From Conexibacter sp. (lineage in GTDB: Bacteria > Actinomycetota > Thermoleophilia > Solirubrobacterales > Solirubrobacteraceae), in the NCBI GenBank assembly GCA_045805465.1, contig JBJMLB010000114.1:2375-66374 (forward strand): a stretch of DNA of 64,000 nucleotides. Direction: 5' to 3'. This document shows positions 17,353 through 53,258 of the stretch, in pieces. Position numbers and translations under genes: made by a program. Position 1 is the first letter of the stretch. Each line of letters opens with the position of its first letter. The notes below the pieces were generated by a model. That model was not told where the DNA came from, did no database searches, and saw only the letters and a program-made list of their open reading frames with translations.

Positions 17353-17468
<116 letters not shown>

Positions 17469-21643: not shown

Positions 21644-22246
21644 ATGGGAGCAGCCGGCGAGCGACGTGTCACCGGCCTGGTCCTGGCTGCCGGCGCGGGG
21701 CGCCGCTTCGGCGCGATCAAGCAGTTGGCTCCGCTGCACGGCCGTCCGCTGATCGAGCACGCGCTGCGGACGATGGCGGCGGTGCCGGAGCTCGACGAGG
21801 TCGTCGTCGCGCTCGGCGCGCATGCGCAGGAGATCGTCGCGCGCGCCGACCAGCACGGTGCGCGGCCGTTGTTCGTGGAGGCGTGGGAGGAGGGGCAGGC
21901 GGCGTCGCTGCGTGCCGCAGTCGCGGCGTTGTCGCCGCAGGTCGGCGCGCTGCTGGTGACGCTCGGCGATCAACCGGCCGTCGGCCAGCGGGAGATCGCA
22001 CGCGTGCTCGCGGCGGGCGGCGCGAGCGAGCTGGTCGCTGCTCGCGCGGTGCATGCGGGCGTGCCCGGCCATCCGGTGCTGCTGAAGCGGCCGCTGTTCG
22101 CTGCGCTGTCGCTGCTGCATGGCGACCGCGGTGCGCGCACCGTCCTCGACGGGGTGGAGGTGTTGGAGGTCGAGTGCGGCCCGGGGGCGGTGCTCGACGT
22201 CGACACGCCGACGCAACTCTCCGAGTTGGAGCGGCCGCGCGGCTGA
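21644..22246 (+). CDS. mocA: molybdenum cofactor cytidylyltransferase (MocA-like nucleotidyltransferase)
   Basis: VTGLVLAAGAGRRFGAIKQLAPLHGRPLIEHAL...LVTLGDQP supports the call. The gene is adjacent to xdhC and the Mo-hydroxylase genes. Confidence 0.8.
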   Translation: MGAAGERRVTGLVLAAGAGRRFGAIKQLAPLHGRPLIEHALRTMAAVPELDEVVVALGAHAQEIVARADQHGARPLFVEAWEEGQAASLRAAVAALSPQVGALLVTLGDQPAVGQREIARVLAAGGASELVAARAVHAGVPGHPVLLKRPLFAALSLLHGDRGARTVLDGVEVLEVECGPGAVLDVDTPTQLSELERPRG

Positions 22247-22250
22247 CCGT

Positions 22251-23366
22251 TCAGTCGCGCTGGCGCCGGATCGGCTCGGCGTTGTCGCGCAGCGGGCCGC
22301 CGCGGCGGTCGGCGCGGTCGGCGACGATCTCGGCGAGGACGGAGAGCGCCGTCTCCTCCGGCGTCGCGCTGCCGATGTCGAGCCCGCAAGGGGCGTGGAG
22401 GCGTTCGAGCTGCGCGCCGGTCACACCGGCTGCGCGCAGCCGGCGCTCGCGATCGGCGGTCGTACGCCGGCTGCCGAGCGCGCCGACGTAGCCGGCGTCG
22501 GTGGCGAGCGCGGCGACCACGGCCGGCACGTCGAGCTTCGGGTCGTGGCTGAAGACGAGGACCGCGTCGCGTGGGCCGAGCTGCCGGCCGGCGAGTGTCT
22601 CCGCGGGCCAGCCGATCCGCACCTCGGCGACCTGCGAGAAGCGCGGCGAGCGCGCGAACGCGGCGCGCGGGTCGGAGATCGTGACGCGATAGCCGAGCCC
22701 CTGCGCGAGGCGCGCCAACGCGGCGGAGAAGTCGATCGCGCCGAACACGATCAGCTGCGGGGGGAGCGCGTGCGTGTGCAGGTGGACGCGCTGCTCCGCG
22801 CCGAGCTTGGAGCCGTCCAGGCCGTAGCGCAGCAGCGCGCCGCCACCCTGGGTCAGCAGGCCCAGCAGGTCCTGCGCGACGTTGCGGTCCAGCAGCTCGC
22901 CGCCGCCGAGCGAGCCGACCGGCTCGCCGTCCACGACGGCGAGCTTCGCGCCCGCCCGCTCGCCGTCGAGCAACGTCGCCAGTCCCGCCGCGCGGCCGTC
23001 GCGCATCGCCGCAAGGAAGGCTGCGACGGGAGCGGCACAGGCGGCGTCGAGCGTCTGGACGAAGACGTGCACCGTCCCGCCGCACGTCAGCCCGGCGGTG
23101 CCGGCCAGCTCGTCGGAGATCCCGTAGGTGGCCAGCACGGGTGGCAGGTGCTCGCGCAGAATCGCCTGCGCCTCGTGGACCACGGCGCTCTCCACGCACC
23201 CGCCGGTGATCGAGCCCTCGATCGCCCCGTCGGCGCCGACGAGCATCGTCGCCCCGGGCGACAGCGGCGCCGAGCCCTCGACGTCCACGAGCACGGCGAT
23301 CGCGAAGCGCCGGCCGTCGCGCAGCCACTCCAGCGCCGTCGCGGCGGTTAGGCTCGTCGCGCGCAT
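22251..23366 (-). CDS. XdhC/CoxI-family Mo-hydroxylase maturation protein
   Basis: N-terminal XdhC_CoxI domain (FAIAVLVDVEGSAPLSPGATMLV..DGAIEGSITGGCVE) plus a C-terminal Rossmann-like domain (LIVFGAIDFSAALARLA..LGYRVTISDPR). Confidence 0.85.
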   Translation of the reverse strand: MRATSLTAATALEWLRDGRRFAIAVLVDVEGSAPLSPGATMLVGADGAIEGSITGGCVESAVVHEAQAILREHLPPVLATYGISDELAGTAGLTCGGTVHVFVQTLDAACAAPVAAFLAAMRDGRAAGLATLLDGERAGAKLAVVDGEPVGSLGGGELLDRNVAQDLLGLLTQGGGALLRYGLDGSKLGAEQRVHLHTHALPPQLIVFGAIDFSAALARLAQGLGYRVTISDPRAAFARSPRFSQVAEVRIGWPAETLAGRQLGPRDAVLVFSHDPKLDVPAVVAALATDAGYVGALGSRRTTADRERRLRAAGVTGAQLERLHAPCGLDIGSATPEETALSVLAEIVADRADRRGGPLRDNAEPIRRQRD

Positions 23367-23433
23367 GCTCCAGCCCTCATCCGGAGTGTCGAGACGCTGG
23401 CAGGGATTGGTTCGATGATGGACAGCATCCTAT

Positions 23434-23450
23434 CTTTGTATTACATTGGA
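23434..23450 (-). promoter_or_regulatory. candidate GntR/HutC operator, copy 1 (upstream of gntR)
   Basis: CTTTGTATTACATTGGA is the exact reverse complement of 26682-26698. The core TGTA-T-TACA fits the GntR-family GT-Nx-AC half-site rule. Confidence 0.55.
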
Positions 23451-23474
23451 CGAAATGTGGGAGGCTAGGGGACG

Positions 23475-24236
23475 ATGGACACGATCTTGAAGCCGATCGA
23501 CGGGAAGCCGCCGTTGGGGAGGCTCGACAGCCGCCTGCTCGCCGGTCGTGCTCGCGCCGAGATCCTCCAAGCGATCTTCGACGGCCGCTTCGAGTCCAAG
23601 CTGCCCAACGAGGACCGGCTCGCCGAGATGCTCGACGTGAGCCGCACGACGGTGCGCACGGCGCTGCAGGGTCTCGAGCGCGACGGCATCATCACGCGTC
23701 GTCGCTCGATCGGCACGATCATCAACAAGCACGTACGACCGTCCTCCCTCGCGTTGCAGCGGCTCGTCGGCTTCGACACCCTGCTGTCCGAGCGAGGCTA
23801 TGACGTCAAGACCGAGGTGTCTTCCCATTGGGGTCCCGCGGGTGCCGAGCTGGCCGCGATCTTCGGCATCGACGCTGACGAGGAGTGCCTGCTGGTGGAG
23901 AAGGCGTATCGCGCCGACGAGACGCTCCCGCTGGTGATCACCGATGCGATCCCGGCCGCGCAGATCCTCGACCGCGAGACCTCAGATCGCGACATGGACG
24001 CCTCGCTGTTCACGTTCAGCGAGCGGCGCTGTCGTGCGGCGATCCATCACGCCGTCGTCAAGCTGATCCCCAGAGTCAAGACGCGCAAGCCGAGCACCAA
24101 GCTGGAGATCCCGGTGGGGACCGCGTTCCTGCGACTGCACGAGGTGCACTACTCCAGCGCGGGCGAGCAGGTCGCATTCTCCGTCATCGACTTCGACGAC
24201 AGCTACATCCAGCTGGAAGTCGCGCGCACCGCATGA
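23475..24236 (+). CDS. GntR-family (HutC/UTRA subfamily) transcriptional regulator
   Basis: LPNEDRLAEMLDVSRTTVRTALQGLERDGIITRRRSIGTII is the wHTH. A UTRA-like effector domain follows. Confidence 0.85.
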   Translation: MDTILKPIDGKPPLGRLDSRLLAGRARAEILQAIFDGRFESKLPNEDRLAEMLDVSRTTVRTALQGLERDGIITRRRSIGTIINKHVRPSSLALQRLVGFDTLLSERGYDVKTEVSSHWGPAGAELAAIFGIDADEECLLVEKAYRADETLPLVITDAIPAAQILDRETSDRDMDASLFTFSERRCRAAIHHAVVKLIPRVKTRKPSTKLEIPVGTAFLRLHEVHYSSAGEQVAFSVIDFDDSYIQLEVARTA

Positions 24237-26563
24237 GCGCAGCGACCACACGCGGGAGGACGGCTGCGGTCGGGCGGGCGCTGCCTCGCCGCGAGGATCG
24301 CCCGCTGCTGACGGGGAGCGGGCGTTTCATCGGCGACATGGCGCTGCCGGGGATGGTCCACGCGGCCTTCCTCCGCAGCCCGATGGCGCATGCGCGGATC
24401 ACGGCCGTGGACGTCGGGCAGGCCGCCGCGGCTCCTGGCGTGCACGCCGCCGTCGCCGCCGCGCAGCTGCCGCTCGCGCCGCTGCACACGCCGATCGCCA
24501 ACCCCGACGCGTGGAGCCCGCCCCGGCCGCTGCTGGCCGACGATCGGGTGCGCTTCGTTGGCGAGCCGGTCGCCGTCGTCGTCGCAGACGACGCATACCT
24601 GGCCGAGGACGCCGCCGAGCTCGTCGAGGTCGACTACGAGGGGCTGCCGGTCGTCGGCGACCCGGTCGCCGCCTGCGAGCCGGACGCCCCGCGCCTGCAC
24701 GACGCGCACCCCAACGCGATCTACGATCACCGCTTCGAGCATGGCGAGCCCGACGCCGCCTTCGCGCGCGCCGCGATCGTCGTCGAGCGCGAGTTCCGCA
24801 ACCCGCGCTTGTCCGCGACACCGATGGAGGGCCGCGGAGTGCTGGCCGCGCCGGAAGGCGACGGGGTCGTCGTGTGGTCCTCGTCGCAGGGGCCGCACCG
24901 GCTCGCGACGCTGCTCGCGGAGCTGCTCGAGCTCGACCAGGCGCAGGTGCGAGTCGTCTGCCCCGACATCGGCGGCGGCTTCGGGCAGAAGGCGCACGTC
25001 TACCCCGAGGAGGTCGTGGTCGCCTGGCTCGCGCTGAAGTTGCAGCGGCCGGTGCGCTGGCTCGAGGATCGCGTGGAGAACCTGCTCGCCTCCAGCCACG
25101 CGCGCGACCAGCGAGTGCGCGTGCGGGTCGGGGCCGACGCTGAGGGCCGGCTGCTCGCGATCGAGGCGGACGTCGTCTGTGACCAGGGCGCGTATGGCAT
25201 GTTCCCGCACGGGCACCTCCTCGAGGCGCTCGGGACGCCGGCGATGATCCCCGGCCCCTACCGGCTGGAGCACTATCGCTTCCGCTCGCGCGCGGTGGCG
25301 ACGAACAAGGCGCCCGAGGGCGCCTACCGCGGCGTCGGGCTGCCGGTGTCGGCGTTCGTGCACGAGCGCGTGATGGACATCCTTGCCGGCGAGCTCGGGA
25401 TCGACCGCGCGGAGATTCGCCGCCGCAACCTCCTGACGCGCGACGAGCTGCCGCGCGTCACCCCGACGAGCCAGCGCTACGACTCCGGCGACTACCCGGC
25501 GGCGCTCGAACGGGCACTCGAGCTCGCCGACTACTCCGGGCACCTCGAGCGTCGCGACGCCGCCCGCGCCGAGGGCCGGCTGAGCGGGCTCGGGATCTCC
25601 TGCTATGTCGAGTACACGGGCGTCAACTCGAACGTCTTCCAGGGCCGGGGGATGGTCGGGATCGCCGGATACGACGGTGCGCACGTCGCGCTCGAGGAGA
25701 GCGGGACGGTGCGCGTCTGGACGACGCTGCCGGCGATCGGCCAGGGCAACGAGACCACCTTCGCCCAGGTCGTCGCCGACGCGGTGGGCACCGACGTCGA
25801 GCGCGTCGCGATCGCGCTGCCGGACACGTCGGTCGGCGGACTGCACGGCACCGGGACGTTCGCGAGCCGCAGCGCGATCTCGGGCTCGGGCGCCATCATC
25901 GAGGCGGGCGGCGAGCTCCGGCGCCGGCTGCTGGAGGACGCGGCGGAGCGCCTGGACACCAGCCCCGGCGAGCTCGAGCTGCGCGGCGACGAGGTCGGCG
26001 TCGTGGGCTCCCCGGAGCGCGCGATCGCACTGCGCGACCTGCTCGCCGACGCGCCGCCGGAGCGCTACCGCGTCTCGGCCACGTTCGACCCGCCGGCGCT
26101 CGCCTACCCGTACGCGACCCACGTGGTCGAGGTCGAGGTCGACCCCGACGTCGGATCGGTGGAGATCGTGCGCTACGTGATCGTCGAGGACTGCGGGACG
26201 GTGATCAACCCGCTCGTCGTGGAGGGCCAGATCCACGGCGCCACCGCCCAGGGAATCGGCGGCGCGCTCCTGGAGGAGCTCGTGTACGGCGAGGACGGGC
26301 AGCTGATCACGGCGTCGCTGATGGACTACCTCGTGCCGACCGCCTCCGAGATGCCGGCCTTCGAGGTCGACCACCTCGCGATCCCGGCGCCCGACAACCC
26401 GACCGGCGTCAAGGGCGTCGGGGAGGGTGGGACGCTCGCGCCGCCGGGCGCGCTGGCGAACGCCGTCGGCGACGCGGTGGGCCATGAGATGAACGAGCTC
26501 CCGCTGCGCCCGGAGACCGTGCGCGCCGCTGCGCAGCGACAGCTGTCGCCGCTCGTCGCGTGA
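24233..26563 (+). CDS. xanthine dehydrogenase/CoxL-family molybdopterin-binding large subunit (orphan: no adjacent FAD or 2Fe-2S subunits)
   Basis: VGRALPRREDRPLLTGSGRFIGD..., APEGAYRGVGLP and GVKGVGEGGT support the family. ATG 24233 overlaps the gntR stop (ATGA). Confidence 0.85.
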   Translation: MSAATTRGRTAAVGRALPRREDRPLLTGSGRFIGDMALPGMVHAAFLRSPMAHARITAVDVGQAAAAPGVHAAVAAAQLPLAPLHTPIANPDAWSPPRPLLADDRVRFVGEPVAVVVADDAYLAEDAAELVEVDYEGLPVVGDPVAACEPDAPRLHDAHPNAIYDHRFEHGEPDAAFARAAIVVEREFRNPRLSATPMEGRGVLAAPEGDGVVVWSSSQGPHRLATLLAELLELDQAQVRVVCPDIGGGFGQKAHVYPEEVVVAWLALKLQRPVRWLEDRVENLLASSHARDQRVRVRVGADAEGRLLAIEADVVCDQGAYGMFPHGHLLEALGTPAMIPGPYRLEHYRFRSRAVATNKAPEGAYRGVGLPVSAFVHERVMDILAGELGIDRAEIRRRNLLTRDELPRVTPTSQRYDSGDYPAALERALELADYSGHLERRDAARAEGRLSGLGISCYVEYTGVNSNVFQGRGMVGIAGYDGAHVALEESGTVRVWTTLPAIGQGNETTFAQVVADAVGTDVERVAIALPDTSVGGLHGTGTFASRSAISGSGAIIEAGGELRRRLLEDAAERLDTSPGELELRGDEVGVVGSPERAIALRDLLADAPPERYRVSATFDPPALAYPYATHVVEVEVDPDVGSVEIVRYVIVEDCGTVINPLVVEGQIHGATAQGIGGALLEELVYGEDGQLITASLMDYLVPTASEMPAFEVDHLAIPAPDNPTGVKGVGEGGTLAPPGALANAVGDAVGHEMNELPLRPETVRAAAQRQLSPLVA

Positions 26564-26656
26564 GCTGAGCAGACGCAGCGACGGGGTGTCCGCCGGGCAG
26601 GCGGCCGCCGCGATGCCGTGCGCTCACGCGCCAACTCTCGCGTCCCGCGAAAAAGC

Positions 26657-26698
26657 GAGTCAAAGGTATTGACTCGTAAAGTCCAATGTAATACAAAG
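26657..26698 (+). promoter_or_regulatory. promoter/operator region of the BMP-ABC operon (19-nt palindrome plus GntR operator copy 2)
   Basis: GAGTCAA-AGGTA-TTGACTC (26657-26675) contains the -35-like TTGACT. TCCAATGTAATACAAAG (26682-26698) follows. The patch is AT-rich within a GC-rich intergenic region. Confidence 0.55.
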
Positions 26699-26752
26699 CA
26701 CAGCACGGTCCCAGATGGGCCCGCTTTGTTTCGACCGAGGAGAGATTGGGCG

Positions 26753-27892
26753 ATGAAGCGTTTCGGGAAGGTGCGGTCGCTGTGCGCGATCGCTGGCGTG
26801 GGCGCACTGCTGCTCACCGGCTGCGGTGACAGCGGCAAGAGCGACACGAGCGGATCTGCCGGCACGTCCGGCGACAAGGCAGGCCTCAAGGTCGGGTTCG
26901 TCTACGTCTCGCCGCTTCCGGGCTCAGCCTGGTCGAAGTCCTGGGACGACACGCGCGTCGTCCTGGAGAAGAAGCTCGGCGCCCAGACCACCGTGGTGCA
27001 GCCGATCGCCGAGAACCCGGACGTCGTCTCCACCTTGCAGGACCTCATCCGCAAGGGCAACAAGCTGATCTTCGCGACCGCCTTCGGCTACCAGCCGTTC
27101 GTCCTGCAGGTCGCCAAGGAGAACCCCGACGTCAACTTCGTCGTCATCGGCCCGTGGGTGCAGGAGGCCGAGCGGCCCGCGAACGTCGCGAGCGTCAGCG
27201 GCGACCTGTGGGACGCGCGCTACCTCACGGGCATCGTCGCGGCCTCGATGAGCAGAACGAAGACGCTCGGCTTCGTGTCGGCGTTCTCGATCCCGGCCGT
27301 GGTCTCGGGCATCGACGGCTTCCAGCTCGGCGCTCAGTCGGTCGATCCGACGATCAAGACGAAGGTCATCTTCACCAGCAGCTGGTACAACCCGCCGAAG
27401 GCGACCCAGGCCGCCGAGACGCTCGCCAAGAGCGGCGCGGACGTGATCGCCAAGCACGAGGACTCGATCGGCCCGCTGCTCGGCGCGCAGTCCGCCGGAG
27501 TGTTCGGCATCGGCTCGGAGTCCGACACGAGCGCGCAGACGCCCGACACGTACCTCACCGGGTCGATCTGGGACTGGACGAAGTACGCCACCGAGAAGTA
27601 CGAGCAGACGCAGGACGGCACCTTCGCCAACGACGAGTTCGACGGCAACCTCAAGGACGGACTCGTCACGCTGGCCCCGATCAGCGACAAGGTCCCGGCC
27701 GACGTCCGCGCCAAGGTCGAGCAGGCCCGCAAGGACATCATCTCGGGCAAGCTCGTGATCTTCAAGGGCCCGCTCAAGTCCAACACCGGCGAGGTCATGG
27801 TGCCCGCCGGGCAGGAGCTCAAGACCTCCGCCGCCATCAACAAGGGCGTCACCGCCCTCGTCGACGGGGTCATCGGGCAGGTCCAGAAGTAG
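26753..27892 (+). CDS. BMP-family (Med/PnrA-like) ABC substrate-binding lipoprotein
   Basis: Lipobox LLTGC with SD GAGGAGAG upstream. LKVGFVYVSPLPGSAWSKSWDD...KLIFATAFGYQP...LGFVSAFSIPAVV is characteristic of basic-membrane-protein/nucleoside-binding SBPs. Confidence 0.85.
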   Translation: MKRFGKVRSLCAIAGVGALLLTGCGDSGKSDTSGSAGTSGDKAGLKVGFVYVSPLPGSAWSKSWDDTRVVLEKKLGAQTTVVQPIAENPDVVSTLQDLIRKGNKLIFATAFGYQPFVLQVAKENPDVNFVVIGPWVQEAERPANVASVSGDLWDARYLTGIVAASMSRTKTLGFVSAFSIPAVVSGIDGFQLGAQSVDPTIKTKVIFTSSWYNPPKATQAAETLAKSGADVIAKHEDSIGPLLGAQSAGVFGIGSESDTSAQTPDTYLTGSIWDWTKYATEKYEQTQDGTFANDEFDGNLKDGLVTLAPISDKVPADVRAKVEQARKDIISGKLVIFKGPLKSNTGEVMVPAGQELKTSAAINKGVTALVDGVIGQVQK

Positions 27893-27904
27893 TCGGGAGG
27901 AGAC

Positions 27905-41826: not shown

Positions 41827-41955
41827 GGTGCCGGCATTCGGCAACGCGGTCGGCGTGGAAGCCTAATATCGTGGGGCTGATGAGCGCGAACGCGTGCGGC
41901 ACGGGGAGAGGGCTCGTCGGCGTGCGCCCGGCCCGCGGGAGCGCGGGCGCAGTGC

Positions 41956-44090: not shown

Positions 44091-44121
44091 CTCCCGACGA
44101 CGACGCCGGGCGCCGTCACGC

Positions 44122-45497: not shown

Positions 45498-47824
45498 GCG
45501 GCCGCTCCGGAGCCGGCGGCGACGATCCACTCCGGCAGGATCGGCAACGACGTGACCTCGACACCGACCGCGTCCGAGACGGCGTTGGCGATCGCCGCGC
45601 CCGCCGCCGTCGTGCCGCCCTCGCCGGCGCCCTTGGCGCCGAGCGGCACGCGCGGGGTTGGGGCATGCTCGGTGATCAGCAGCGCCAGCTCTGGCACCTC
45701 GGTCGCCGTCGGCAGCAGGTAGTCCATGAGCGATCCGGCGACCAGCTGGCCGTCCTCGTCGTAGGCGAGGTGCTCGTAGAGCGCGCCGCCGAGCCCCTGC
45801 GCGAAGCCGCCCAGAAGCTGGCCCTCGACGAGCTTCGGGTTGATCGCGCGGCCGACGTCGTACGCGATCGAGTAGCGCTCGATCCTGACGCTCCCCAGCT
45901 CGACGTCGAGCTCGACGGCGGCGCAGTGCAGGCCGTACGGGAAGCTCATCTGCTCGCTCGTGAAGGTCGCCTCGTCGCTGAGCGCATCCGTCGCCGCGGC
46001 GGCCAGCGCGGCCAGCGACAGCGTCGCGCGCGGGCTGCCGCGCACCTTGAAGCGACCCTGCGCCAGCTCGAGCTCGCCGGGGGCGCACTCGAGCTGCTCG
46101 GCAGCCGTCTCCAGGAGCCGCGCGCGCAGCGCGACGGAGGCCTCCGCGACGGCCGCGCCGCCGAGGCTCGTCCCGCGGCTGCCGAACGAGCCCATGCCCT
46201 TCGGCACCTCGTCGGTGTCGCCGTGCCGCACGCCGATCGCCTCGTAGGGCACGTCGAGCGTCTCGGCGCAGATCTGCGCGAGCACCGTCTCCAGGCCCTG
46301 GCCGAGCGAGGCGGCGCCGGTGTAGACGACGACCGCGCCGTTGTCCTCGACCTCGACGCGCGCGTACTCCCACACGCCGATCCCGCTCTTCTCGACGAAC
46401 AGCGCGACGCCCAGCCCACGCCGCAGGTGGGGCGCGACCTCGGCGTCGCGCCAGGCGCGCATGCGCTCGTAGCCGAAGTGCTCGAGCCCCTCATCGAGCA
46501 GGCGCGGGTAGTCGCCGCTGTCGTAGACGACGGGGTGGCCGTCGGTGCTGCTGCCGTTCGCGTAGGGCATCTGCTCGGGCAGCACGAGGTTCTGCCGGCG
46601 CAGCTCGCAGGGGTCGCGGCCCAGCTTGCGGGCGGCGACGTCGATCACGCGCTCGCGCGCGAGCGTCGCCTCGTAGCGCCCGGGCGCGCGGTAGGTGCCG
46701 GCAGGCGTCTTGTTGGTCACGACCTGACGCACGTCGAGCGCCAGCGCCGGGAAGCGATAGGGGCCCGGCAGCAGACCGGCGCTCATGCCGGGCACGACGC
46801 CCCCGTGCGTACGCACGTACGCGCCCGTGTTCATGACGATCTCGGCCCGCAGCCCCAGGAAGGTGCCGTCGGCGGCCAGCGCGATCGCGATCCGCTCGGT
46901 CTGCTCGCGCGAGTGGTTGGTGGCGCGCAGGTGCTCCTCGCGGTCCTCGGTCCAGCGCACGGGGCGGCCGAGCCGGATCGCGCAGAAGGGGATCAGGTAG
47001 TCCTCGGGATACAGCTCGCCGCGCGCGCCGAAGCCGCCGCCGACGTGCGGCTCGACGAAGCGGATGCGCTCCAGCGGCCAGTCGAGCATGCCCGCGAGCA
47101 GCTTGCGGTTCGTGTGGGCGACCTTGGTGGGGCCCCAGACAGTGAGCTGGGCGCCATCGTCGCTGGTCGCGGCGAGCAGGCCGCGCGTCTCCATCGGCAC
47201 GGCTGCGTGGCGCCCGCAGCCGATCAGCTCCTCGACGACGAGGTCGGCCGCGGCGAACGCGGCGGCGGCGTCGCCGTCGGCGATCTCGTACGCCGAGACG
47301 AGGTTGGAGCCGGCCTCGGGGTGCAGCAGCGGCGCCTCGTCCGCCATCGCCGCGGTGGCGTCGAGCGCGACGGGCAGCGGCTCCCAGTCGACCTCGATCA
47401 GCTCCAGCGCGTCTTCGGCGACGTAGCGCGAGTCGGCCACGACGACCGCGACGGGCTCGCCGACGTAGCGCACGCGCCCGCGCGCGAGCGGGCGCTGCAG
47501 GAAGCGCTCCATCCCCGGGCGGGGGAACATCCGGATCGGGATCGGAGGACCGCCGCCCGGCAGGTCGGCCGAGCTGATGACGTCCACGACGCCGTCGTGC
47601 CCGCGCGCGGCGCTCGTGTCGATCGCGCGCACGCGGCCGTGCGGCAGTGGGGAGCGCAGGATCGCCGCGTGCAGCGCGTCGGGCGACGGCAGGTCGTCGA
47701 CGAAGCGTCCCGCGCCGCGCAGCAGGACGTCGTCCTCCTTGCGCAGCGGCGAGCTGCCGATCGGCCACGTCGGCGCGTCCTCGGTGGGAACGGCGGGCGC
47801 TGGCAGGACCGTCGACTGCGTCAT
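45494..47824 (-). CDS. CoxL/xanthine dehydrogenase-family molybdopterin large subunit (module B)
   Basis: LRKEDDVLLRGAGRFVDD, KTPAGTYRAPGRYE and LGAKGAGEGGT support the family. The protein aligns collinearly with the module A large subunit. Confidence 0.85.
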   Translation of the reverse strand: MTQSTVLPAPAVPTEDAPTWPIGSSPLRKEDDVLLRGAGRFVDDLPSPDALHAAILRSPLPHGRVRAIDTSAARGHDGVVDVISSADLPGGGPPIPIRMFPRPGMERFLQRPLARGRVRYVGEPVAVVVADSRYVAEDALELIEVDWEPLPVALDATAAMADEAPLLHPEAGSNLVSAYEIADGDAAAAFAAADLVVEELIGCGRHAAVPMETRGLLAATSDDGAQLTVWGPTKVAHTNRKLLAGMLDWPLERIRFVEPHVGGGFGARGELYPEDYLIPFCAIRLGRPVRWTEDREEHLRATNHSREQTERIAIALAADGTFLGLRAEIVMNTGAYVRTHGGVVPGMSAGLLPGPYRFPALALDVRQVVTNKTPAGTYRAPGRYEATLARERVIDVAARKLGRDPCELRRQNLVLPEQMPYANGSSTDGHPVVYDSGDYPRLLDEGLEHFGYERMRAWRDAEVAPHLRRGLGVALFVEKSGIGVWEYARVEVEDNGAVVVYTGAASLGQGLETVLAQICAETLDVPYEAIGVRHGDTDEVPKGMGSFGSRGTSLGGAAVAEASVALRARLLETAAEQLECAPGELELAQGRFKVRGSPRATLSLAALAAAATDALSDEATFTSEQMSFPYGLHCAAVELDVELGSVRIERYSIAYDVGRAINPKLVEGQLLGGFAQGLGGALYEHLAYDEDGQLVAGSLMDYLLPTATEVPELALLITEHAPTPRVPLGAKGAGEGGTTAAGAAIANAVSDAVGVEVTSLPILPEWIVAAGSGAAA

Positions 47825-48498
47825 GCGCGCGCGCGGACCTTGAGCTCGATCGAGGGGCCGCGGCGCCCGCGCGCGCGCAGCAGGCCGAGCGCCACCAGCA
47901 CGGCGACGAGCACGCCGGCGACGCCGAGCTCGCGGCGGTAGTTGCGCCAGACCATGCCGCCGAGGTCGAGCGTCGCCGCCTCGTCCTCGGGCAGTGCGGC
48001 GGGACTGCCGGCGTCGTCTGTCTCGGCGCGCGTCACGCCCGCGGCGGTGTCGAGCACGAGCTGCTGCAGGCGGGCGGCGAAGTCGTCGAGCATGCGCCCG
48101 GCGACGTCCTGCATCATGCCGCGGCCGAACTGGGCAGGCCGACCGGTGATGTCGAGCGTGGTCGCGACGACGACGCGGGTCTCGCCATCCTGCTCGCTCA
48201 GCTCGTTGCGGATCGTCGCGGTCGCGGTGCCGGTGCCCTTCGTCTCCTTCGCCTGTGCGCGGAAGACGGTCACGTGGCTATCCTCGTCGACCTCGGCCAG
48301 GCGGACGGTGCCGCCGTACTGCACGCTGACCGGGCCGATCCGCATCTTCATCTGACCGCGGTAGGCGCCGTCCTCGCCGACCGGCTCGATCGTCGCGCCC
48401 GGCAGGCACGACGCCACGCGCTCGACGTCGAGCAGCGCCGCCCAGGTCTGCTGCAGAGGCGCCGCCACGAGAAATTCATTGTTCAAGGTGACAGACAA
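47821..48498 (-). CDS. CoxG-like SRPBCC protein with C-terminal TM anchor (module B)
   Basis: FLVAAPLQQTWAALLDVERVASCLPGA...GPVSVQYGGTV..., followed by the TM helix LGVAGVLVAVLVALGLL. Confidence 0.8.
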   Translation of the reverse strand: MSVTLNNEFLVAAPLQQTWAALLDVERVASCLPGATIEPVGEDGAYRGQMKMRIGPVSVQYGGTVRLAEVDEDSHVTVFRAQAKETKGTGTATATIRNELSEQDGETRVVVATTLDITGRPAQFGRGMMQDVAGRMLDDFAARLQQLVLDTAAGVTRAETDDAGSPAALPEDEAATLDLGGMVWRNYRRELGVAGVLVAVLVALGLLRARGRRGPSIELKVRARA

Positions 48499-48581
48499 GT
48501 TCGACTCCCTGGGCGGATGGATCAGGCGTGCGACACCGCAAAGTTATCACCGGTCGTTAGGCGCGTAAACTGCGGTGGCGG

Positions 48582-49496
48582 TCATTCGTGCGTGAGCACG
48601 AGCGCTCCACGCGGGACGCGGCGCTGCCACTGCCCATCCGCCAAGACCATGAGAAACGCTGATGCGAGCCCGCTGAAGGCGCTCGCCGCCGTGTACGCCG
48701 CGATCTCCCAGACGACCGGCGGGTCGAGCCGGTGGGCGGCCTGGCGCAGCTCGCTCGGCACGTTCGCGAGCGGCAGCGCGGCCGGGCCCAGGCCGGCCGC
48801 GCCCATGCGCGCCGCGCTCTCGAGCTGCGTCGTGGTGAGCGCGGCCTTCGGCGTGAAGCCGGAGCGCTCGCAGGCCTGCTGCACGATGTCGCGGAGCCCG
48901 TGCTCGGGCTCGTAGAGGACCCACTCGTCGTGCGCCAGCGCAGCCAGCGGGACCGGCGCCCCGGCGTGGCTGAGCGGCTGGTCCGGGCTCAGGACGACGA
49001 CCAGCTCGTCCCATCCGAGCGGGCGCACGGCACCGCGCCACTGCGTCGGCCGTGGCGCGATGCCGAGGTCCGCTTCGCCTGCTGCAACGAGGTTTTCGAC
49101 GTCATGGCGGTTCGCGAACTCGTGCACGCGCAGCGTCGTGAAGCGGCTGGTCAGCCGCCAGCGGCGGATGCAGTCGGGCAGCACGGACGCGGCCAGCGAC
49201 TGCACGGTGGCGATGTCGAGCCGCGAGGCTTGGCCCTTCGCGGCCTCGCGCCCGGCCGCGAGCGCGCGCGAGGCCGACGTCACGGAGATGCGCGCCTCGG
49301 CCGCGAGCGCCTGACCCGCGGAGGTCAGCCGCACCGGCCGCGGCGGACGCTCCAGCAGCGTCGCCCCGACCTCAGCCTCGAGCGCGCGGACCTGCTGGGA
49401 GAGGGCGGGCTGGGAGACGCCGAGCCGGCGACTGGCGACGGTGAAGGAGCCGCACTCGGCGACCGCGAGCAGGTACTCGAGCTGCTTCAGGGTCAT
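48582..49496 (-). CDS. LysR-family transcriptional regulator
   Basis: MTLKQLEYLLAVAECGSFTVASRRLGVSQPALSQQVRALEAEVG supports the call. Confidence 0.9.
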   Translation of the reverse strand: MTLKQLEYLLAVAECGSFTVASRRLGVSQPALSQQVRALEAEVGATLLERPPRPVRLTSAGQALAAEARISVTSASRALAAGREAAKGQASRLDIATVQSLAASVLPDCIRRWRLTSRFTTLRVHEFANRHDVENLVAAGEADLGIAPRPTQWRGAVRPLGWDELVVVLSPDQPLSHAGAPVPLAALAHDEWVLYEPEHGLRDIVQQACERSGFTPKAALTTTQLESAARMGAAGLGPAALPLANVPSELRQAAHRLDPPVVWEIAAYTAASAFSGLASAFLMVLADGQWQRRVPRGALVLTHE

Positions 49497-49502
49497 AGGA
49501 AT

Positions 49503-49517
49503 ATCTTATGCGAAGAT
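49503..49517. promoter_or_regulatory. LysR-type T-N11-A palindrome next to the lysR start
   Basis: ATCTT-ATGCG-AAGAT lies 7 nt upstream of the minus-strand lysR ATG, in the divergent intergenic region. Confidence 0.4.
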
Positions 49518-49702
49518 TCGCGACCCGTCTTTGCGCCCGTGTGCAGGACGACTTATCCTCCTCCGGCGACCGACGGACGGAACATCCGCTCGGCGTCATG
49601 AATCGTGCGACGTCGCTCATGAGCGTTACGTGATGCTGCCGCGCTGAATTCAGCTGGGTGCGAGTCGTACTTCGTCGCCTCACCCCGCACGCAAGGAGAG
49701 CT

Positions 49703-50383
49703 GTGAGCATTGCATCGCAACACACGACGCTCGTCGACCTGACTATGCCGCTGTCGTCGAAGACGATCCCGGTGCCCGGACATCCGGCTCCGATGCTCAC
49801 CCCGCTGCACCTGCTCGAACGCGACGGCGTGCGCAACACGCTCATGTGCATGAGCCTGCACACAGGCACGCACGTCGACGCGCCCTCGCACTTCATCGAG
49901 GACGGCAGCGCGATCGACGAGATCCCGCTGGAGCGCTTCCACCGCCCGGGTCTGCGGCTCGACCTGACGGGGATCGCGCCGGGCGCCGCGATCTCGCTCG
50001 AGAACCTGCGCCGCGCCGGCTTCGACCCGGGCAGCACGCGCGACACGATCCTGCTGCTCGCCAGCGGCTGGAGCGACGCTGCCTGGCAGGAGCCGCGCCT
50101 CTACGGCGGCAACCCCTACCTCGCGACCGACGCGGCCGAGGCGATCGCCGAGGCCGGGCCGTCCGCGATCGGGCTCGACTTCGCCGTCGACCACGCCAAG
50201 CCGTGGCCCAACCACAGCATCCTGCTCAGCGCCGACGTGCTGCTGATCGAGAACCTGATGGGCCTGCCGGCGCTGCCCGAGCGCGACTTCGACGTGCTCA
50301 GCTTCCCGCTGCGGATCGAGGGCGAGAACGGCGCGCCTGCGCGCGTCGTCGCCTCCGTGCCGTCCGGGACGGCGGCGGCGTGA
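49703..50383 (+). CDS. cyclase-family protein (formamidase / isatin hydrolase fold)
   Basis: The HTGTHVDAPSH motif is present. GTG 49703 is preceded by AAGGAGAG. Track ORF start 49658 is less likely. Confidence 0.8.
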   Translation: MSIASQHTTLVDLTMPLSSKTIPVPGHPAPMLTPLHLLERDGVRNTLMCMSLHTGTHVDAPSHFIEDGSAIDEIPLERFHRPGLRLDLTGIAPGAAISLENLRRAGFDPGSTRDTILLLASGWSDAAWQEPRLYGGNPYLATDAAEAIAEAGPSAIGLDFAVDHAKPWPNHSILLSADVLLIENLMGLPALPERDFDVLSFPLRIEGENGAPARVVASVPSGTAAA

Positions 50384-50790
50384 AGCTCACGCGCGTCAAC
50401 CACCTCGGCGTCGTCATCGACGACCTCGAGACGGCGATCCACGGCTTCGAGACGCTGCTCGGCCTGCCGATCACCTCGACCGAGCGCTACGGCGACGAGC
50501 TCGACATCATCTTCCTGCCCTGCGGCGACACGCAGGTCGAGCTGATCCGCCCGCTGAAGGACGGCGACACCGCCTCCTGGCTCGGCACCAACGGCCCCGG
50601 GATCCAGCACGTCGCGTTCGAGGTCGAGGATCTCGCCGCGTCGCTGGCGGAGCTGGCCGAGCGCGGCGTCGGCACGGTCGGCGCCGCCCCACGGCCTGGC
50701 GCGGGCAACACGATCATCGCCTTCCTCGAGCCGCAGCACTTCGGCGGGATCGTGGTCGAGCTGTGCCAGCCGCTTCCGGCCGGCACCTGA
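50380..50790 (+). CDS. VOC-superfamily protein, methylmalonyl-CoA epimerase-like
   Basis: GTGA overlap with the upstream gene. LTRVNHLGVVIDDLETAI..F...LG...VELIRP...GPGIQHVAFEVEDL supports the call. Confidence 0.75.
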   Translation: MKLTRVNHLGVVIDDLETAIHGFETLLGLPITSTERYGDELDIIFLPCGDTQVELIRPLKDGDTASWLGTNGPGIQHVAFEVEDLAASLAELAERGVGTVGAAPRPGAGNTIIAFLEPQHFGGIVVELCQPLPAGT

Positions 50791-50829
50791 CCGCGATGCC
50801 CGACCCCCTCGCTCGCCGGGCGGGCCGGC

Positions 50830-52422
50830 GTGCCCATGCCTGAGCAGCCGGCGCCCGCCGCGGCGGCGCTCGCAGCCTGGAGGCGCCATGGGGCGGACGG
50901 GGATCCGCAGCAGCTGCGCGCCGCGCTGGCCGCCGGCACCCTGTCGGAGGCGTTCGCCGCGACCGCCGCCCGGGTGCCCGAGCGGCCGGCGCTGACGGTC
51001 GACGACCGCACGGCGACCCACGGGGAGCTGGACGCAGCCGCCGCATGCGTTGCCGGATGGCTGGTCGAGCGCGGCCTGCAGGCGGGCGACAGGATCCTGC
51101 TCGCCGGGCCCAGCTCGCTCGAGCTGATCCACGCCTACCTCGGCGCCCTGCGCGCCGGCGCGATCGTCGTCTTCGCCGACCCGCGCGCGACGGTGCCCGA
51201 GCTCGCGCACCTAATCGCCGACGCGCAGCCCCGTCTTGCGTTCGCCTGCGGCGAGCAGCTCCAGACGCTGCGCGGGGACGCGATCGCCGGGACCCCGCTC
51301 GGGCTCGGTGCGATCGCGCTGGAGCGCGGTGGAGCCGAGCCCACGCTGACGCAGGCGCTGGAAGGTTCGCCGATCGCGCCTATCGCGCCTGTCGCCGCCC
51401 TGCTCGCCTACACATCGGGGACGACCGGCGAGCCGAAGGGCGCGCTGCTGTCGCACGGCAACGTGCTCGCCTCGATTCGCGGCGCGCTGACGGCATGGCG
51501 CTGGAGTGAGGACGACGTGCTGGTCCACGCGCTCCCGCTGTCCCACCAGCACGGGCTCAGCGGCGTCCACGCCGCGCTGCTGACCGGCTCGCACACGGTC
51601 GTGCTTTCGAAGTTCGACCCGCGGGCGCTGGACAGCGCAGTCGAGCGCCACGGCGCGACGGTCCTCTTCGCCGTCCCCTCGATCTACGAGCGGCTCGTCG
51701 CGCACGGCCCGCTGCGGGCGCTGCGCGGCCTGCGGCTGGCCACCTGCGGCTCGGCGCCGTTGACCGTCGAGCTGGGCGAGCGCGTGGGCGAGCTGCTCGG
51801 CCAGCTCCCGCTCGAGCGCTACGGCTCCACGGAGGCCGGCCTCGACGTCTCGAACCCCTACGACGGCCCACGCGTGCTCGGTCGCGTCGGGCTCCCGCTC
51901 CCGGGCGTGGAGGTCGACGTCGACGGCGCGGGCGAGGACGGCGTCGGCGAGCTGCTCGTGCGCGGGCCACAGGTCTTCGACGGCTACTGGCGCCGCGAGA
52001 AGGCGACGGCCGAGGCGTTCGCCGACGGCTGGTTCCGCACCGGCGACCTCGCGCGGATCGACCCTGAGACGGGCTACGTCGCGATCGTCGGGCGCAGCAA
52101 GGAGATGATCATCTCCGGCGGGCTCAACGTCTATCCGGCGGAGGTCGAGCGCGTCATCGTCGAGCACCCCTCGGTCGTCGCCGTCGCCGTCGCCGGCGTC
52201 CCGTCGCAGGCGTGGGGGGAGGAGGTCGTCGCGTTCGTCGTCCCGGCCGCGGTCGCGGTCGCGCAGGACGAGCTCGTGGCCTTCTGCCGCGAGCGGATGT
52301 CCGCCTACAAGTGCCCCAAGCGCGTGGTGACCGTCGCCGAGCTGCCGCGCAACCGGATGGGCAAGGTCCGCCGGGACGTGCTCGTCGCAGACGTCGAGTC
52401 CGCGCCCGGTGCGGCCGGCTGA
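50830..52422 (+). CDS. AMP-dependent acyl-CoA synthetase/ligase
   Basis: The AMP-binding motif LAYTSGTTGEPKGALLSHGN is present, plus YGSTE, GWFRTGDLA and a C-terminal ...GKVRR. Confidence 0.85.
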   Translation: MPMPEQPAPAAAALAAWRRHGADGDPQQLRAALAAGTLSEAFAATAARVPERPALTVDDRTATHGELDAAAACVAGWLVERGLQAGDRILLAGPSSLELIHAYLGALRAGAIVVFADPRATVPELAHLIADAQPRLAFACGEQLQTLRGDAIAGTPLGLGAIALERGGAEPTLTQALEGSPIAPIAPVAALLAYTSGTTGEPKGALLSHGNVLASIRGALTAWRWSEDDVLVHALPLSHQHGLSGVHAALLTGSHTVVLSKFDPRALDSAVERHGATVLFAVPSIYERLVAHGPLRALRGLRLATCGSAPLTVELGERVGELLGQLPLERYGSTEAGLDVSNPYDGPRVLGRVGLPLPGVEVDVDGAGEDGVGELLVRGPQVFDGYWRREKATAEAFADGWFRTGDLARIDPETGYVAIVGRSKEMIISGGLNVYPAEVERVIVEHPSVVAVAVAGVPSQAWGEEVVAFVVPAAVAVAQDELVAFCRERMSAYKCPKRVVTVAELPRNRMGKVRRDVLVADVESAPGAAG

Positions 52423-52460
52423 ACCAGCTTCACGTACACGAACACGAGAGAGGACATCGC

Positions 52461-53258
52461 ATGGATCTCGGACTGAAGGGACAGACCGTCCTGATCACCG
52501 GCGGAAGTCGTGGCATCGGCTTCTCGACCGCGCGGCTGCTGGTCGAGGAAGGCTGCAAGGTGGCGATCGCCGCCCGCGACCAGGGCCGCCTCGACGAGGC
52601 GGTCGAGGAGCTGTCGGCAGCCGGGTCCGGCGAGGTCGCCGCGTTCTGCGGCGACATGACGGACTCCAAGGAGGTCGAGCGCGTCGTCGACGAGGTGATC
52701 GCGCGCTTCTCCGCCATCGACGTGCTCGTCACCTGCGCGGGATCTTCTCCGGGCGGTCTGCTCGAGGAGCTGACCGAGGAGCAGTGGGCCTCTTCCCTTG
52801 GACTCAAGTTCATGGGTTACGTGCGCTCCTGCCGCGCGGTCATCCCGCGCATGCGCGAGAACGGCGGCGGCTCGATCGTCCTCGTCGTCGGCAACGACGG
52901 CCTCAAGCCGAGCTACTGGGAGATGACGGCGGGCGCCGCAAACGCCGCCGACATTAACTTCGCCTCTTCGCTGGCGGAGCAGTACGGCCCAGCCGGCATT
53001 CGCGTCAACACGGTCAACCCCGGCCCCGTCGACACCGGCCGCTGGGACCTGCTCGAGGCCGCCTTCTCGCGCGACAAGAAGGTCGACCGCGAGCGGGCGC
53101 ACGAGCTCGTGCTCAAGTCGCTGCCGCTCAACCGCATCTGCACCCCGGACGAGGTCGCCAATCTCGTCGCGTTCGTCGCCTCGCCGCGCGCGAGCTACAT
53201 CAACGGCGCGCACATCCCGATCGACGGCGGTCAGCGCAAGTCGCTGATGGACCTGTAG
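52461..53258 (+). CDS. SDR-family oxidoreductase
   Basis: TGGSRGIG (NAD(P)-binding motif) and the catalytic-region pattern ...SYWEMTAGAANAA... and IRVNTVNPGPV support the call. Confidence 0.85.
   Translation: MDLGLKGQTVLITGGSRGIGFSTARLLVEEGCKVAIAARDQGRLDEAVEELSAAGSGEVAAFCGDMTDSKEVERVVDEVIARFSAIDVLVTCAGSSPGGLLEELTEEQWASSLGLKFMGYVRSCRAVIPRMRENGGGSIVLVVGNDGLKPSYWEMTAGAANAADINFASSLAEQYGPAGIRVNTVNPGPVDTGRWDLLEAAFSRDKKVDRERAHELVLKSLPLNRICTPDEVANLVAFVASPRASYINGAHIPIDGGQRKSLMDL

Follow-up and report, generated by a model that had tools for sequence, protein, structure and literature searches.

Here we used comparative sequence analysis to study a catabolic gene region of about 31 kb (positions 21644-53258) in a stretch of 64,000 nucleotides from Conexibacter sp. 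(GenBank assembly GCA_045805465.1, contig JBJMLB010000114.1), which we call the window. On the evidence of synteny, this region is composed of two neighbouring and separately conserved modules, each of which is found alone elsewhere and which have been fused in one lineage. With moderate confidence, we read them as two adjacent catabolic modules for nucleobase-like nitrogen heterocycles, each built around a molybdenum hydroxylase that would depend on molybdopterin cytosine dinucleotide (MCD) and consist of CoxG, large (L), FAD (M) and iron-sulfur (S) subunits. By the same comparisons, module A is the stretch 21644-39460, extending probably to 40845 with two CoA-transferase genes, and module B is 40933-53258, with genes g43-g46 as its core (Table 1). 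The initial annotation of the window had described a single pathway that hydroxylates, cleaves, deformylates and deamidates an N-heterocycle and ends in a CoA-dependent lower branch. Its gene inventory is borne out, in that Pfam finds every family named and all 31 genes are present, and its description of the region as catabolic for N-heterocycles and centred on molybdenum hydroxylases is supported in family content by Pfam and sequence comparison. Its succession of cleavage, deformylation and deamidation is a plausible one. The single pathway as worded does not survive the synteny survey, which divides the region into two self-contained modules and finds A and B each conserved separately rather than as one supercluster.

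Module A is delimited by a colinear block in a Baekduia metagenome-assembled genome (MAG), which runs MocA, GntR, lone L, Bmp, ATPase, two permeases, CN-hydrolase 1, CoxG, L, M, S, cyclase, cupin, bicupin, CN-hydrolase 2, XdhC and has unrelated genes on either side; these bounds define the module as 21644-39460 of the window. Colinear blocks of 13 to 17 module A genes are present in this MAG and in other Thermoleophilia, two further long contigs have the module A core in common and then diverge, and Mycolicibacterium and Streptomyces carry rearranged versions. Homologues of the bicupin and CN-hydrolase 1 come mainly from soil metagenomes and Thermoleophilia. A bicupin scan of one genome per GTDB species yielded 174 relatives, and the window proteins were mapped onto 80 loci. 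The commonest operon order among these is bicupin, CN-hydrolase 2, CoxM, an L of the L0 type, CoxS, an L of the L1 type, cyclase 1 and CoxG (L0, L1 and L2 being the large subunits g19, g26 and g40 of the window), and its carriers are Nocardioides, Aeromicrobium, Acrocarpospora, Nonomuraea, Phytohabitans, Acidimicrobiia and alphaproteobacterial MAGs. Bradyrhizobium has M-L-S-L and the bicupin, with neither CN-hydrolase 2 nor cyclase 1 within 10 kb. Across the 55 fully flanked loci (at least 8 kb on each side of the bicupin gene), (i) CN-hydrolase 2 lies beside the bicupin in 49; (ii) at least one L is present in 48 and at least two in 37; (iii) cyclase 1 is present in 36; and (iv) any module B orthologue, at a threshold of at least 45% identity, is present in 2 and absent in 53. 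Module A stands alone in at least 50 loci, including many Actinomycetota and Bradyrhizobium.

The minimal form of module A, consisting of bicupin, CN-hydrolase 2 and cyclase 1 only, occurs in sponge-associated Acidimicrobiia and on a Rhodococcus ruber plasmid (NZ_CP145321.1, locus L009, 104097-110579), where the trio is 46-53% identical to the window proteins (51% for CN-hydrolase 2, 53% for cyclase 1) and two VanA-type Rieske/reductase pairs occupy the place of the molybdenum subunits. On this plasmid, the trio comes after one Rieske oxygenase and PDR reductase, with the second pair and another CN-hydrolase upstream; genes for CMD and zinc alcohol dehydrogenase proteins follow the trio, a DUF1116 gene lies nearby, and by PDB comparison the Rieske proteins come closest to SxtT/SxtDIOX and to NdmA, a methylxanthine demethylase. 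No close copy of the region was found on any of the 72,556 plasmids of PLSDB by tblastn of L1, cyclase 1 and CN-hydrolase 2: the sole match of at least 50% identity was this trio, which is unannotated, all others reached at most 44%, and the best plasmid-borne large subunit is 43% identical. Haloarchaeal cyclase 1 homologues sit in unrelated contexts. Several Acidimicrobiia loci (L025-L048, including the sponge-associated Candidatus Poriferisocius) encode a 455-residue, three-fold RidA/L-PSP fusion (e.g., L038, 5182-6549, minus strand) between a lone molybdenum large subunit and a Bmp importer, adjoining module A; such a triple fusion recalls the origin proposed for the "Toblerone" fold of AtzD and barbiturase. 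An old-yellow-enzyme-type flavin reductase (Oxidored_FMN, ∼405 residues) lies inside or just after Thermoleophilia-type copies of module A (L001, L023, L065 and L075) and has no counterpart in the window. JGI metagenome contigs (L098, which is Ga0136846_1180950, and P0001 and P0121) encode counterparts of cyclase 2, the bicupin and CN-hydrolase 1 of the window at 94-96% identity, so a close relative of the source organism has been sampled elsewhere.

Module B is likewise found by itself, in Rubrobacter and many soil contigs. Its core genes g43-g46 are colinear in Rubrobacter xylanophilus and more than 30 loci, and the cyclase 2 family has 1584 homologues at ∼65-74% identity. In R. xylanophilus DSM 9941 and three long contigs, the genes for cyclase 2, VOC, crotonase, ligase, (amidase), short-chain dehydrogenase/reductase (SDR) and CoxG are divergent from CoxM-L-CoxS-L, an architecture that recurs, with its own M-L-S-L, in 18 of the 36 loci of at least 5.5 kb that we obtained by metagenome scan and mapping. 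Orthologues of the second LysR regulator (g42; 48-56% identity) keep the same divergent position in L094, L097, L099-L101, L103, L104, L106, L109 and L163. Amidase and crotonase genes lie within module B of L094, L095, L096, L117, L129, L140 and L143, and by this comparison the g36-g37 pair of the window is a relocated part of module B.

The two modules also meet outside the window. In six of the 36 metagenomic module B loci (L097, L099, L101, L103, L106 and L109, all Solirubrobacterales-like), the module A genes for CoxG, M, S, cyclase 1, cupin, bicupin and CN-hydrolase 2 lie directly upstream of those for LysR, cyclase 2, VOC, ligase and SDR; a Solirubrobacterales MAG has the same arrangement, and in L065 and L075 module A is joined with module B-like genes. 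By this recurrence the grouping is not accidental, which is the part of the single-pathway proposal that stands, even though each module is also found on its own. Compared with these loci, the window is the fused form with an insertion of the CoA-transferase genes, LysR regulator 1, the amidase-crotonase pair and a second Cox set. One could therefore imagine an integrated pathway for a single substrate, in which module A would provide uptake, hydroxylation, ring cleavage and deamidation and module B would be a CoA-dependent lower branch that consumes the acid made by A. In the window and in all the joined loci the modules are side by side; in the six metagenomic ones the B part has no molybdenum hydroxylase of its own within view; the second Cox set of the window is a recent duplicate of the module A set and there is only one L0-type gene; and the MatB-like ligase could take a dicarboxylate from the module A trio. 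We nevertheless consider such integration unlikely, given the 53 fully flanked module A loci without a module B orthologue and the fact that in Rubrobacter and at least 18 contigs module B has its own M-L-S-L, ring hydrolase and amidase and would thus form a complete route alone. The three regulators and at least five transcription directions in the window argue in the same direction, and the adjacency of A and B may reflect common descent within one order.

Table 1. Genes of the region at 21644-53258 of the window, as called from GC content by codon position.
Gene	Product	Coordinates	Strand	Evidence
g16	MocA-like molybdenum cofactor cytidylyltransferase	21644-22246	+	Pfam NTP_transf_3, 7.5e-31
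g17	XdhC maturation factor	22251-23366	-	Pfam XdhC_C and XdhC_CoxI, 1e-39
g18	GntR/UTRA (HutC-type) regulator	23475-24236	+	Pfam GntR and UTRA
g19	Lone molybdenum large subunit L0, 776 aa, NdhL-like clade	24233-26563	+	Pfam MoCoBD_1/2
g20	BMP-family lipoprotein substrate-binding protein, lipobox LTGC	26753-27892	+	Pfam Bmp, 7.9e-42
g21-g23	ABC ATPase (two ABC domains) and two BPD_transp_2 permeases	27905-31466	+	Pfam
g24	CN-hydrolase 1, divergent nitrilase-superfamily protein	31463-32368	+	Pfam CN_hydrolase, 2.9e-28
g25-g28	CoxG (SRPBCC), large subunit L1 (KdhL-like), FAD subunit M, 2x[2Fe-2S] subunit S	32359-36765	+	Pfam
g29	Cyclase 1 (cyc1), cyclase-fold metal hydrolase	36762-37517	+	Pfam Cyclase (PF04199), 5.3e-32
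g30	Small cupin, 117 aa	37510-37863	+	Pfam Cupin_2
g31	Bicupin, 252 aa	37860-38618	+	Pfam Cupin_2, twice
g32	CN-hydrolase 2, canonical Glu-Lys-Cys amidase/carbamoylase type	38615-39460	+	Pfam, 4e-46
g33-g34	3-oxoacid CoA-transferase subunits B and A	39485-40845	-	NCBIfam TIGR02428 and TIGR02429, above cut-offs
g35	LysR regulator 1	40933-41826	+	Pfam HTH_1 and LysR_substrate
g36-g37	Amidase-signature amidase and crotonase	41956-44090	+	Pfam Amidase, 1.7e-95; ECH_1, 4.3e-33
g38-g41	Second CoxS, CoxM, CoxL (L2), CoxG set	44122-48498	-	Pfam
g42	LysR regulator 2, divergent from g43	48582-49496	-	Pfam
g43-g46	Cyclase 2 (cyc2), VOC (Glyoxalase_4, methylmalonyl-CoA-epimerase-like), MatB-like acyl-CoA ligase, SDR	49703-53258	+	Pfam

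The gene model rests on a codon-position GC score (GC3), which suits a window of ∼73% G+C (0.69-0.76 along its length), and domains were assigned by Pfam; a plain listing of open reading frames was set aside, being swamped at this composition with 160 frames of at least 90 residues. The GC3 call makes 21644-53258 a run of 31 contiguous genes, in exact agreement with the limits of the earlier description. Start codons were refined from gene overlaps, Shine-Dalgarno sequences and homologue lengths, which moved those of the lone L (24233), Bmp (26753), CN-hydrolase 1 (31463), CoxM (35378), CN-hydrolase 2 (38615) and cyclase 2 (49703). Adjacent genes within 27905-39460 overlap or abut by 1-8 bp and thus appear to be translationally coupled; the g18 stop likewise overlaps the g19 start by 4 bp, and g36 and g37 overlap by 4 bp. 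Genes g16-g18 recur with module A: g16 homologues (the window protein scores 107 bits with NCBIfam MocA/YgfJ, under the cut-off, and is 35% identical to NBOR of plasmid pAO1) flank it in the Baekduia locus, L015, L018 and L019; XdhC (40% identical to that of pAO1) lies within it in the Baekduia locus, L043 and L097; and g18 accompanies it in L006, L008, L013, L043, L065, L075, L099 and L106. The CoA-transferase genes g33-g34 are probably a module A accessory too, since Pedococcus and Nocardioides (L074, L076 and L085) have orthologues of 56-62% identity next to module A and a CoA_trans gene comes next in the Streptomyces copy. Divergent from them and upstream of the amidase-crotonase pair lies g35. 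Little could be learnt from scanning 38500-54500 for promoters and terminators, which gave one promoter-like and no terminator-like site.

Unrelated genes bound the region, namely PadR/ABC/FtsX genes upstream and MpsC, STAS, PQQ and cytochrome oxidase genes downstream. The last of these (55588-60972, plus strand) encode a PQQ-type beta-propeller protein, a COX2-cytochrome c fusion and a long COX1 (774 residues), a possible electron sink just downstream of the region. Two tRNA genes lie in the window at 9481-9564 (minus strand) and 17353-17426 (plus strand), the second at a distance of ∼260 bp from the PadR/ABC/FtsX operon and ∼4.2 kb from the region, both of which lie downstream of it. The segment 4001-6000 has a G+C content of 0.64 against ∼0.73 and a strong negative AT skew, and within 3068-6055 there is neither a gene by the GC3 caller nor an RNA family in Rfam.

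The molybdenum hydroxylases are the centre of both modules. All three L of the window are full length, with Ald_Xan_dh_C, MoCoBD_1 and MoCoBD_2 domains (Pfam E values of 1e-69 to 1e-83), and have the hammerhead domain, the GGGFG motif and the C-terminal catalytic glutamate (in GVGEGG in L0) of the MCD-type xanthine dehydrogenase/CoxL family. Two M subunits (FAD_binding_5 and CO_deh_flav_C), two S subunits (Fer2 and Fer2_2), one MocA-like protein and one XdhC agree with an MCD-type L-M-S enzyme, and g25-g28 and g38-g41 are two complete CoxG-L-M-S sets. L0 is 37% identical to NdhL and 40-42% identical to g26 and g40, L1 has KdhL as its closest characterised relative, at 39% identity, and for CoxG the identity to the SRPBCC protein of pAO1 is 44%. 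In a tree of 56 large subunits, one clade holds NdhL of pAO1, L0 and the first L of the M-L-S-L operons of both modules, and in the other KdhL groups with L1, L2 and the second L of these operons. L2 nests within the L1 group of Thermoleophilia module A, apart from the module B subunits of Rubrobacter, and the identity between the two Cox sets is 68% for L, 62% for M, 81% for S and 62% for G; the second set is therefore a lineage-specific duplicate of the module A set placed among module B genes. As judged from these operons and motifs, both modules normally follow a conserved design in which a single FAD subunit and a single iron-sulfur subunit serve two different catalytic subunits, each of them intact, and we know of no earlier description of two catalytic subunits served by one electron-transfer module. 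By analogy with Ndh followed by Kdh, we infer two successive hydroxylations for L0 and L1; the two may also be isoenzymes for different substrates.

After hydroxylation, further enzymes of the two modules would act. Cyclase 1 has the metal motif HSGTHFDAEMH (HxGTHxDxxxH), has remote PDB relatives only and is likewise remote from kynurenine formamidase and isatin hydrolase; in cyclase 2, the motif reads HTGTHVDAPSH. The small cupin, whose gene occurs only in Thermoleophilia-type copies of module A, has an HxHxxE...H motif conserved in 17 orthologues. In the bicupin (AlphaFold2 model with pLDDT 94.5), H178, H180, E184 and H221 in the C-terminal barrel (HxH...E...H) and H54, E57 and H86 are invariant. 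Its family is narrow, with 21 representatives at E ≤ 1e-30 among 1.84 billion sequences, and an exact-sequence look-up gave no match. The manganese site of (S)-ureidoglycine aminohydrolase is made up of Glu/His/His/Gln in the C-terminal cupin. The bicupin, with its His-x-His...Glu...His ligands, had no sequence match to that enzyme (DUF861). CN-hydrolase 2 has the catalytic Glu, Lys and Cys of the nitrilase superfamily, best matches in the PDB to archaeal nitrilase/beta-ureidopropionase-like proteins and Nit2, and 30% identity to the pAO1 omega-amidase. CN-hydrolase 1, which has 313 homologues at E ≤ 1e-10 and whose gene invariably adjoins the importer genes, retains the catalytic Glu and the Cys ("CSE"). 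For the g45 ligase, MatB is the best NCBIfam family (393 bits, cut-off 558) and the malonyl-CoA synthetase of R. palustris (4FUQ) the best PDB match (300 bits vs 243 for the next class). The g44 VOC protein scores 96 bits in NCBIfam, with a cut-off of 115, and its best PDB matches are methylmalonyl-CoA epimerases. Ligase and VOC together point to a malonate- or methylmalonate-type product; the g37 crotonase is a generic family member.

Clues to the substrate come from the importer and from the neighbours of module A. Among solved structures, the g20 binding protein is closest to two proteins that bind purine bases, AtzT (6PI5, 6.4e-64), which binds guanine at 110 nM (PMC6834077), and 3S99 (2.9e-59), modelled with adenine. 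Genes g21-g23 are colinear with the Bmp and CN-hydrolase 1 genes in all Thermoleophilia, Mycolicibacterium and Streptomyces versions; in other taxa, an NCS2 carrier beside CN-hydrolase 1 serves the same enzymes, and NMT1-type ABC systems and other Bmp types also occur. In two Thermoleophilaceae MAGs (L022 and L023), cytosine-deaminase-like and guanine/8-oxoguanine-deaminase-like genes precede module A, and genes for isochorismatase, triple-RidA, CMD and old-yellow-enzyme proteins recur near it. The xanthine/urate riboswitch regulon includes genes of the NMT1 and Rieske/PDR types, and in Klebsiella the HpxDE Rieske enzymes replace xanthine dehydrogenase (PMC7373994), which the R. ruber trio, with Rieske pairs instead of molybdenum subunits, parallels. 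These importer affinities, nucleobase-deaminase neighbours and Rieske/NMT1 parallels favour a nucleobase-like substrate over a simple pyridine. Our best specific guesses are that module A handles an oxidised purine- or pyrimidine-type base and that module B is an oxidative pyrimidine-like route that ends in (methyl)malonyl-CoA.

The sequence comparisons show which genes are present, their catalytic motifs, that the modules are conserved and separable, the two-subunit architecture and what the importers resemble; from these we infer in which order the steps run, what the cupins and CN-hydrolase 1 do and what the substrates are. In module A, a GntR-controlled operon would import a small planar base via the BMP-type ABC system, and the C-H next to a ring nitrogen would be hydroxylated by L0 (NdhL-like) and L1 (KdhL-like), with one FAD subunit, one iron-sulfur subunit and CoxG in common. 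The conserved trio—cyclase-fold metal amidohydrolase, metal-binding bicupin (with the small cupin) and nitrilase-superfamily amidase—would then open the oxidised ring and remove nitrogen, and the CoA-transferase may activate the resulting acid. Module B would be a LysR-controlled parallel route with a molybdenum hydroxylase, a second cyclase-fold ring hydrolase and the amidase-signature amidase, at the end of which the MatB-like ligase, the epimerase-like VOC protein, the crotonase and the SDR would bring a (methyl)malonate-type product into CoA metabolism; its logic would be that of oxidative uracil/thymine degradation, carried out by non-homologous enzymes. As a barbiturase-independent oxidative pyrimidine route, module B is coherent but unproven. 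More tentatively still, and with much doubt, we offer a joint reading of the modules as common aerobic routes for nucleobase rings that had so far gone unrecognised, in which B degrades uracil and thymine without barbiturase (molybdenum dehydrogenase, cyclase-fold hydrolase, amidase-signature-type ureidomalonase, ligase, epimerase and crotonase) and A degrades oxidised purines without uricase or allantoin, both with a two-headed molybdenum hydroxylase and A with a nitrilase protein in which lysine has become arginine.

Several observations weigh against a nucleobase reading or against parts of it. No protein except the generic 3-oxoacid CoA-transferase subfamily reaches an NCBIfam equivalog cut-off (June 2026 release), so every enzymatic role is assigned at the level of the family. 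The top NCBIfam models of all three L are glyceraldehyde dehydrogenase alpha (579-635 bits) and group-5 aerobic carbon monoxide (CO) dehydrogenase, in each case under the cut-off. The AtzT residues E165, N169, S97, N218 and N220 are replaced in g20, whose specificity residues differ from those of both purine binders. The NCS2 carrier gives a mixed hint, its best NCBIfam model being xanthine permease, under the cut-off, and its signature being PENAG, with a Glu-Asn pair that we take to be associated with uracil carriers. By Rfam, the window and the proteobacterial loci contain tRNAs only, with no xanthine riboswitch or other Rfam element near the clusters. In CN-hydrolase 1, an invariant Arg ("R-T/S-H-P") stands for the catalytic Lys ("YRKxH") in all 24 aligned homologues down to 54% identity, and the protein thus lacks the Glu-Lys-Cys triad. 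The fold neighbours of the bicupin—oxalate decarboxylase, quercetinase YxaG and ureidoglycine aminohydrolase (4E2Q, TM-score 0.73/0.72)—are about equal, and decarboxylase, dioxygenase and aminohydrolase models were not separable by this search. Finally, module B of the window has no L0-type subunit of its own, the window having a single L0-type gene, and canonical module B has two L although uracil needs one hydroxylation, which leaves the second L unexplained.

Molybdenum hydroxylase clusters for N-heterocycles are already known. The enzymes of the present two modules have no curated family or characterised orthologue, and the modules are conserved in Bradyrhizobium, in Acidimicrobiia associated with sponges and across Actinomycetota of soil; their most noteworthy features are the M-L-S-L hydroxylase with its two heads and the trio of bicupin, CN-hydrolase and cyclase. 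If the substrates are nucleobases, the modules could close gaps of long standing, by supplying genes for the oxidative catabolism of pyrimidines other than those of the rare barbiturase family and possibly an alternative to the uricase/allantoin route, with a bearing on nitrogen recycling from nucleic acids in soil and sponge symbionts. Cultured carriers include R. xylanophilus DSM 9941 for module B and, for module A, Nocardioides carbamazepini, Aeromicrobium piscarium, Acrocarpospora spp., Mycolicibacterium iranicum, Streptomyces sp. NPDC057611 and Bradyrhizobium elkanii WSM2783.

The initial annotation had matched the region to no pathway, and our comparisons agree: there is no equivalog, KdhL at 39% is the closest characterised enzyme, no plasmid carries a close copy, and in the literature we found no description of the gene combination, of isonicotinate degradation genes or of uracil dehydrogenase genes. 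Among the characterised clusters compared, none is a close syntenic match, and the nearest analogue by family content, at low identities, is the kdhL operon of pAO1 (kdhL, cyclase, dhpH, SRPBCC, CN-hydrolase, XdhC and MocA-like NBOR; reference NZ_CP089294), part of the lower nicotine pathway of Paenarthrobacter nicotinovorans. Like this pathway and the hpo genes (HpoH and HpoI) of Rhodococcus rhodochrous PY11, module A combines a pair of molybdenum hydroxylases from the NdhL and KdhL clades with a free SRPBCC/CoxG protein, a cyclase of family PF04199 and an amidase of the nitrilase superfamily, and has XdhC and a MocA-like gene in the cluster. Module A could accordingly be imagined as a pyridine/pyridone pathway of this type, in which two alpha-hydroxylations lead to a 2,6-dihydroxypyridine-type ring, the bicupin oxygenates it instead of DHPH, the cyclase releases alpha-ketoglutaramate and a CN-hydrolase acts as omega-amidase. 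Besides the nearly identical family content, the placement of L0 with NdhL and L1 with KdhL, the similarity of CoxG and XdhC to their pAO1 counterparts and the ene-reductases of the old-yellow-enzyme type that recur beside module A speak for it, as do published proposals that the cyclase (PKC/HpoH) opens the hydroxylated ring and that NIT is an omega-amidase (PMC6214936). We still judge it improbable. Identities are low (37-39% for L, 30% for CN-hydrolase 2 against NIT); cyclase 1 has no blastp match at E < 1e-3 to the pAO1 cyclase (cyclase 2 is 27% identical over 210 residues), and we rejected it as an orthologue of the pAO1/HpoH cyclase; Pfam finds no DHPH-like FAD monooxygenase in the window; and the importers (BMP/AtzT-like, NCS2 and NMT1) and the nucleobase-deaminase neighbours are of nucleobase types. 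In addition, the bicupin, the small cupin, the BMP importer and the further, Lys-less CN-hydrolase of module A set it apart from pAO1, and the two hydroxylases of pAO1 are each complete, whereas module A in its commonest form (M-L-S-L) provides a single M and a single S for two L.

For module B, a CoA-thioester chemistry has also to be considered. The furoyl-CoA pathway combines the ligase HmfD, the molybdenum hydroxylase HmfABC and the crotonase-family hydrolase HmfE, and module B resembles it in having an acyl-CoA ligase, a CoxLMS-type hydroxylase and a crotonase. Module B could then be a CoA-thioester pathway for a heteroaromatic carboxylate, either like Hmf or corresponding to the genetically orphan route from isonicotinate to citrazyl-CoA of Mycobacterium sp. 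INA1, for which, as said, the literature offered no genes. The two L of canonical module B would fit two successive hydroxylations; ligase, SDR reductase, ring hydrolase, amidase and crotonase are all present; and MFS carriers of the Sugar_tr type and a GntR/FCD regulator flank the module in Rubrobacter. We regard this, too, as having little probability: the ligase scores 300 bits with malonyl-CoA synthetase vs 165-186 bits with benzoate/chlorobenzoate ligases and is therefore MatB-like rather than aryl-CoA-ligase-like, the VOC protein is closest to methylmalonyl-CoA epimerases, module B of L094 is served by a BMP-type importer and an isochorismatase, and module B adds to the Hmf scheme a cyclase-fold hydrolase, an amidase-signature amidase, a VOC protein and an SDR. 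Highly improbable, and rejected on motif and gene context, is a reading of the molybdenum enzymes as aldehyde or CO dehydrogenases (CutABC/glyceraldehyde dehydrogenase or form-II CoxL type) with the hydrolases as unrelated passengers: their top models are of these classes and L0, though not L1 or L2, carries AYRGVG, which resembles the form-II CoxL signature AYRGAGR, but the scores fall under the curated cut-offs of 790 and 950, the form-I loop AYXCSFR is absent from all three L (TIGR02416, 460-512 bits against a cut-off of 991), and hydrolases, cupins and nucleobase-type importers are tightly colinear and apparently translationally coupled with the Cox genes across phyla.

We return to the preferred reading of two modules for nucleobase-like heterocycles and to its relation to other described systems. 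The maleamate-type pathways (nic, pic and 3hpd) have only the idea of a four-component hydroxylase in common with the region, and their downstream enzymes are non-homologous: among the 31 genes, Pfam finds no NicX dioxygenase, NicD deformylase, NicF isochorismatase amidase, NicE isomerase or PEP-utilising/PPDK protein. The 3-hydroxypyridine dehydrogenase cluster HpdA1-4, reported in Thermoleophilia and Rubrobacteria (bioRxiv 10.1101/2020.01.08.898148), is alike in that it pairs its molybdenum hydroxylase with an SRPBCC subunit encoded separately and includes a GntR regulator and an ABC importer; we rejected it as a match, its downstream and PEP/PPDK genes being absent. On the purine side, the three L score 411-433 bits with the best xanthine dehydrogenase models (XdhA/PucD/XdhB equivalogs, cut-offs of at least 780), and the Pfam families of uricase, HIU hydrolase, OHCU decarboxylase and allantoinase have no match in the window. 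The hpx system of Klebsiella and the xanthine-riboswitch regulon join purine oxidation genes to those for NMT1-type binding proteins, Rieske/PDR pairs, hutI-like and guanine-deaminase-like amidohydrolases and nucleobase carriers (PMC7373994), and the same accessory families surround module A elsewhere, whereas here the hydroxylase is a molybdenum enzyme and there is no riboswitch. The oxidative pyrimidine pathway of Rhodococcus and Mycobacterium leads via barbiturate and ureidomalonate to malonate and urea, with a ring hydrolase of the AtzD/barbiturase family (PMC3758960), whose domain Pfam does not find in the window. Module B has a like logic—molybdenum-type hydroxylation, hydrolytic ring opening and an amidase—and the same host phylum, and its cyclase-fold hydrolase would replace barbiturase.

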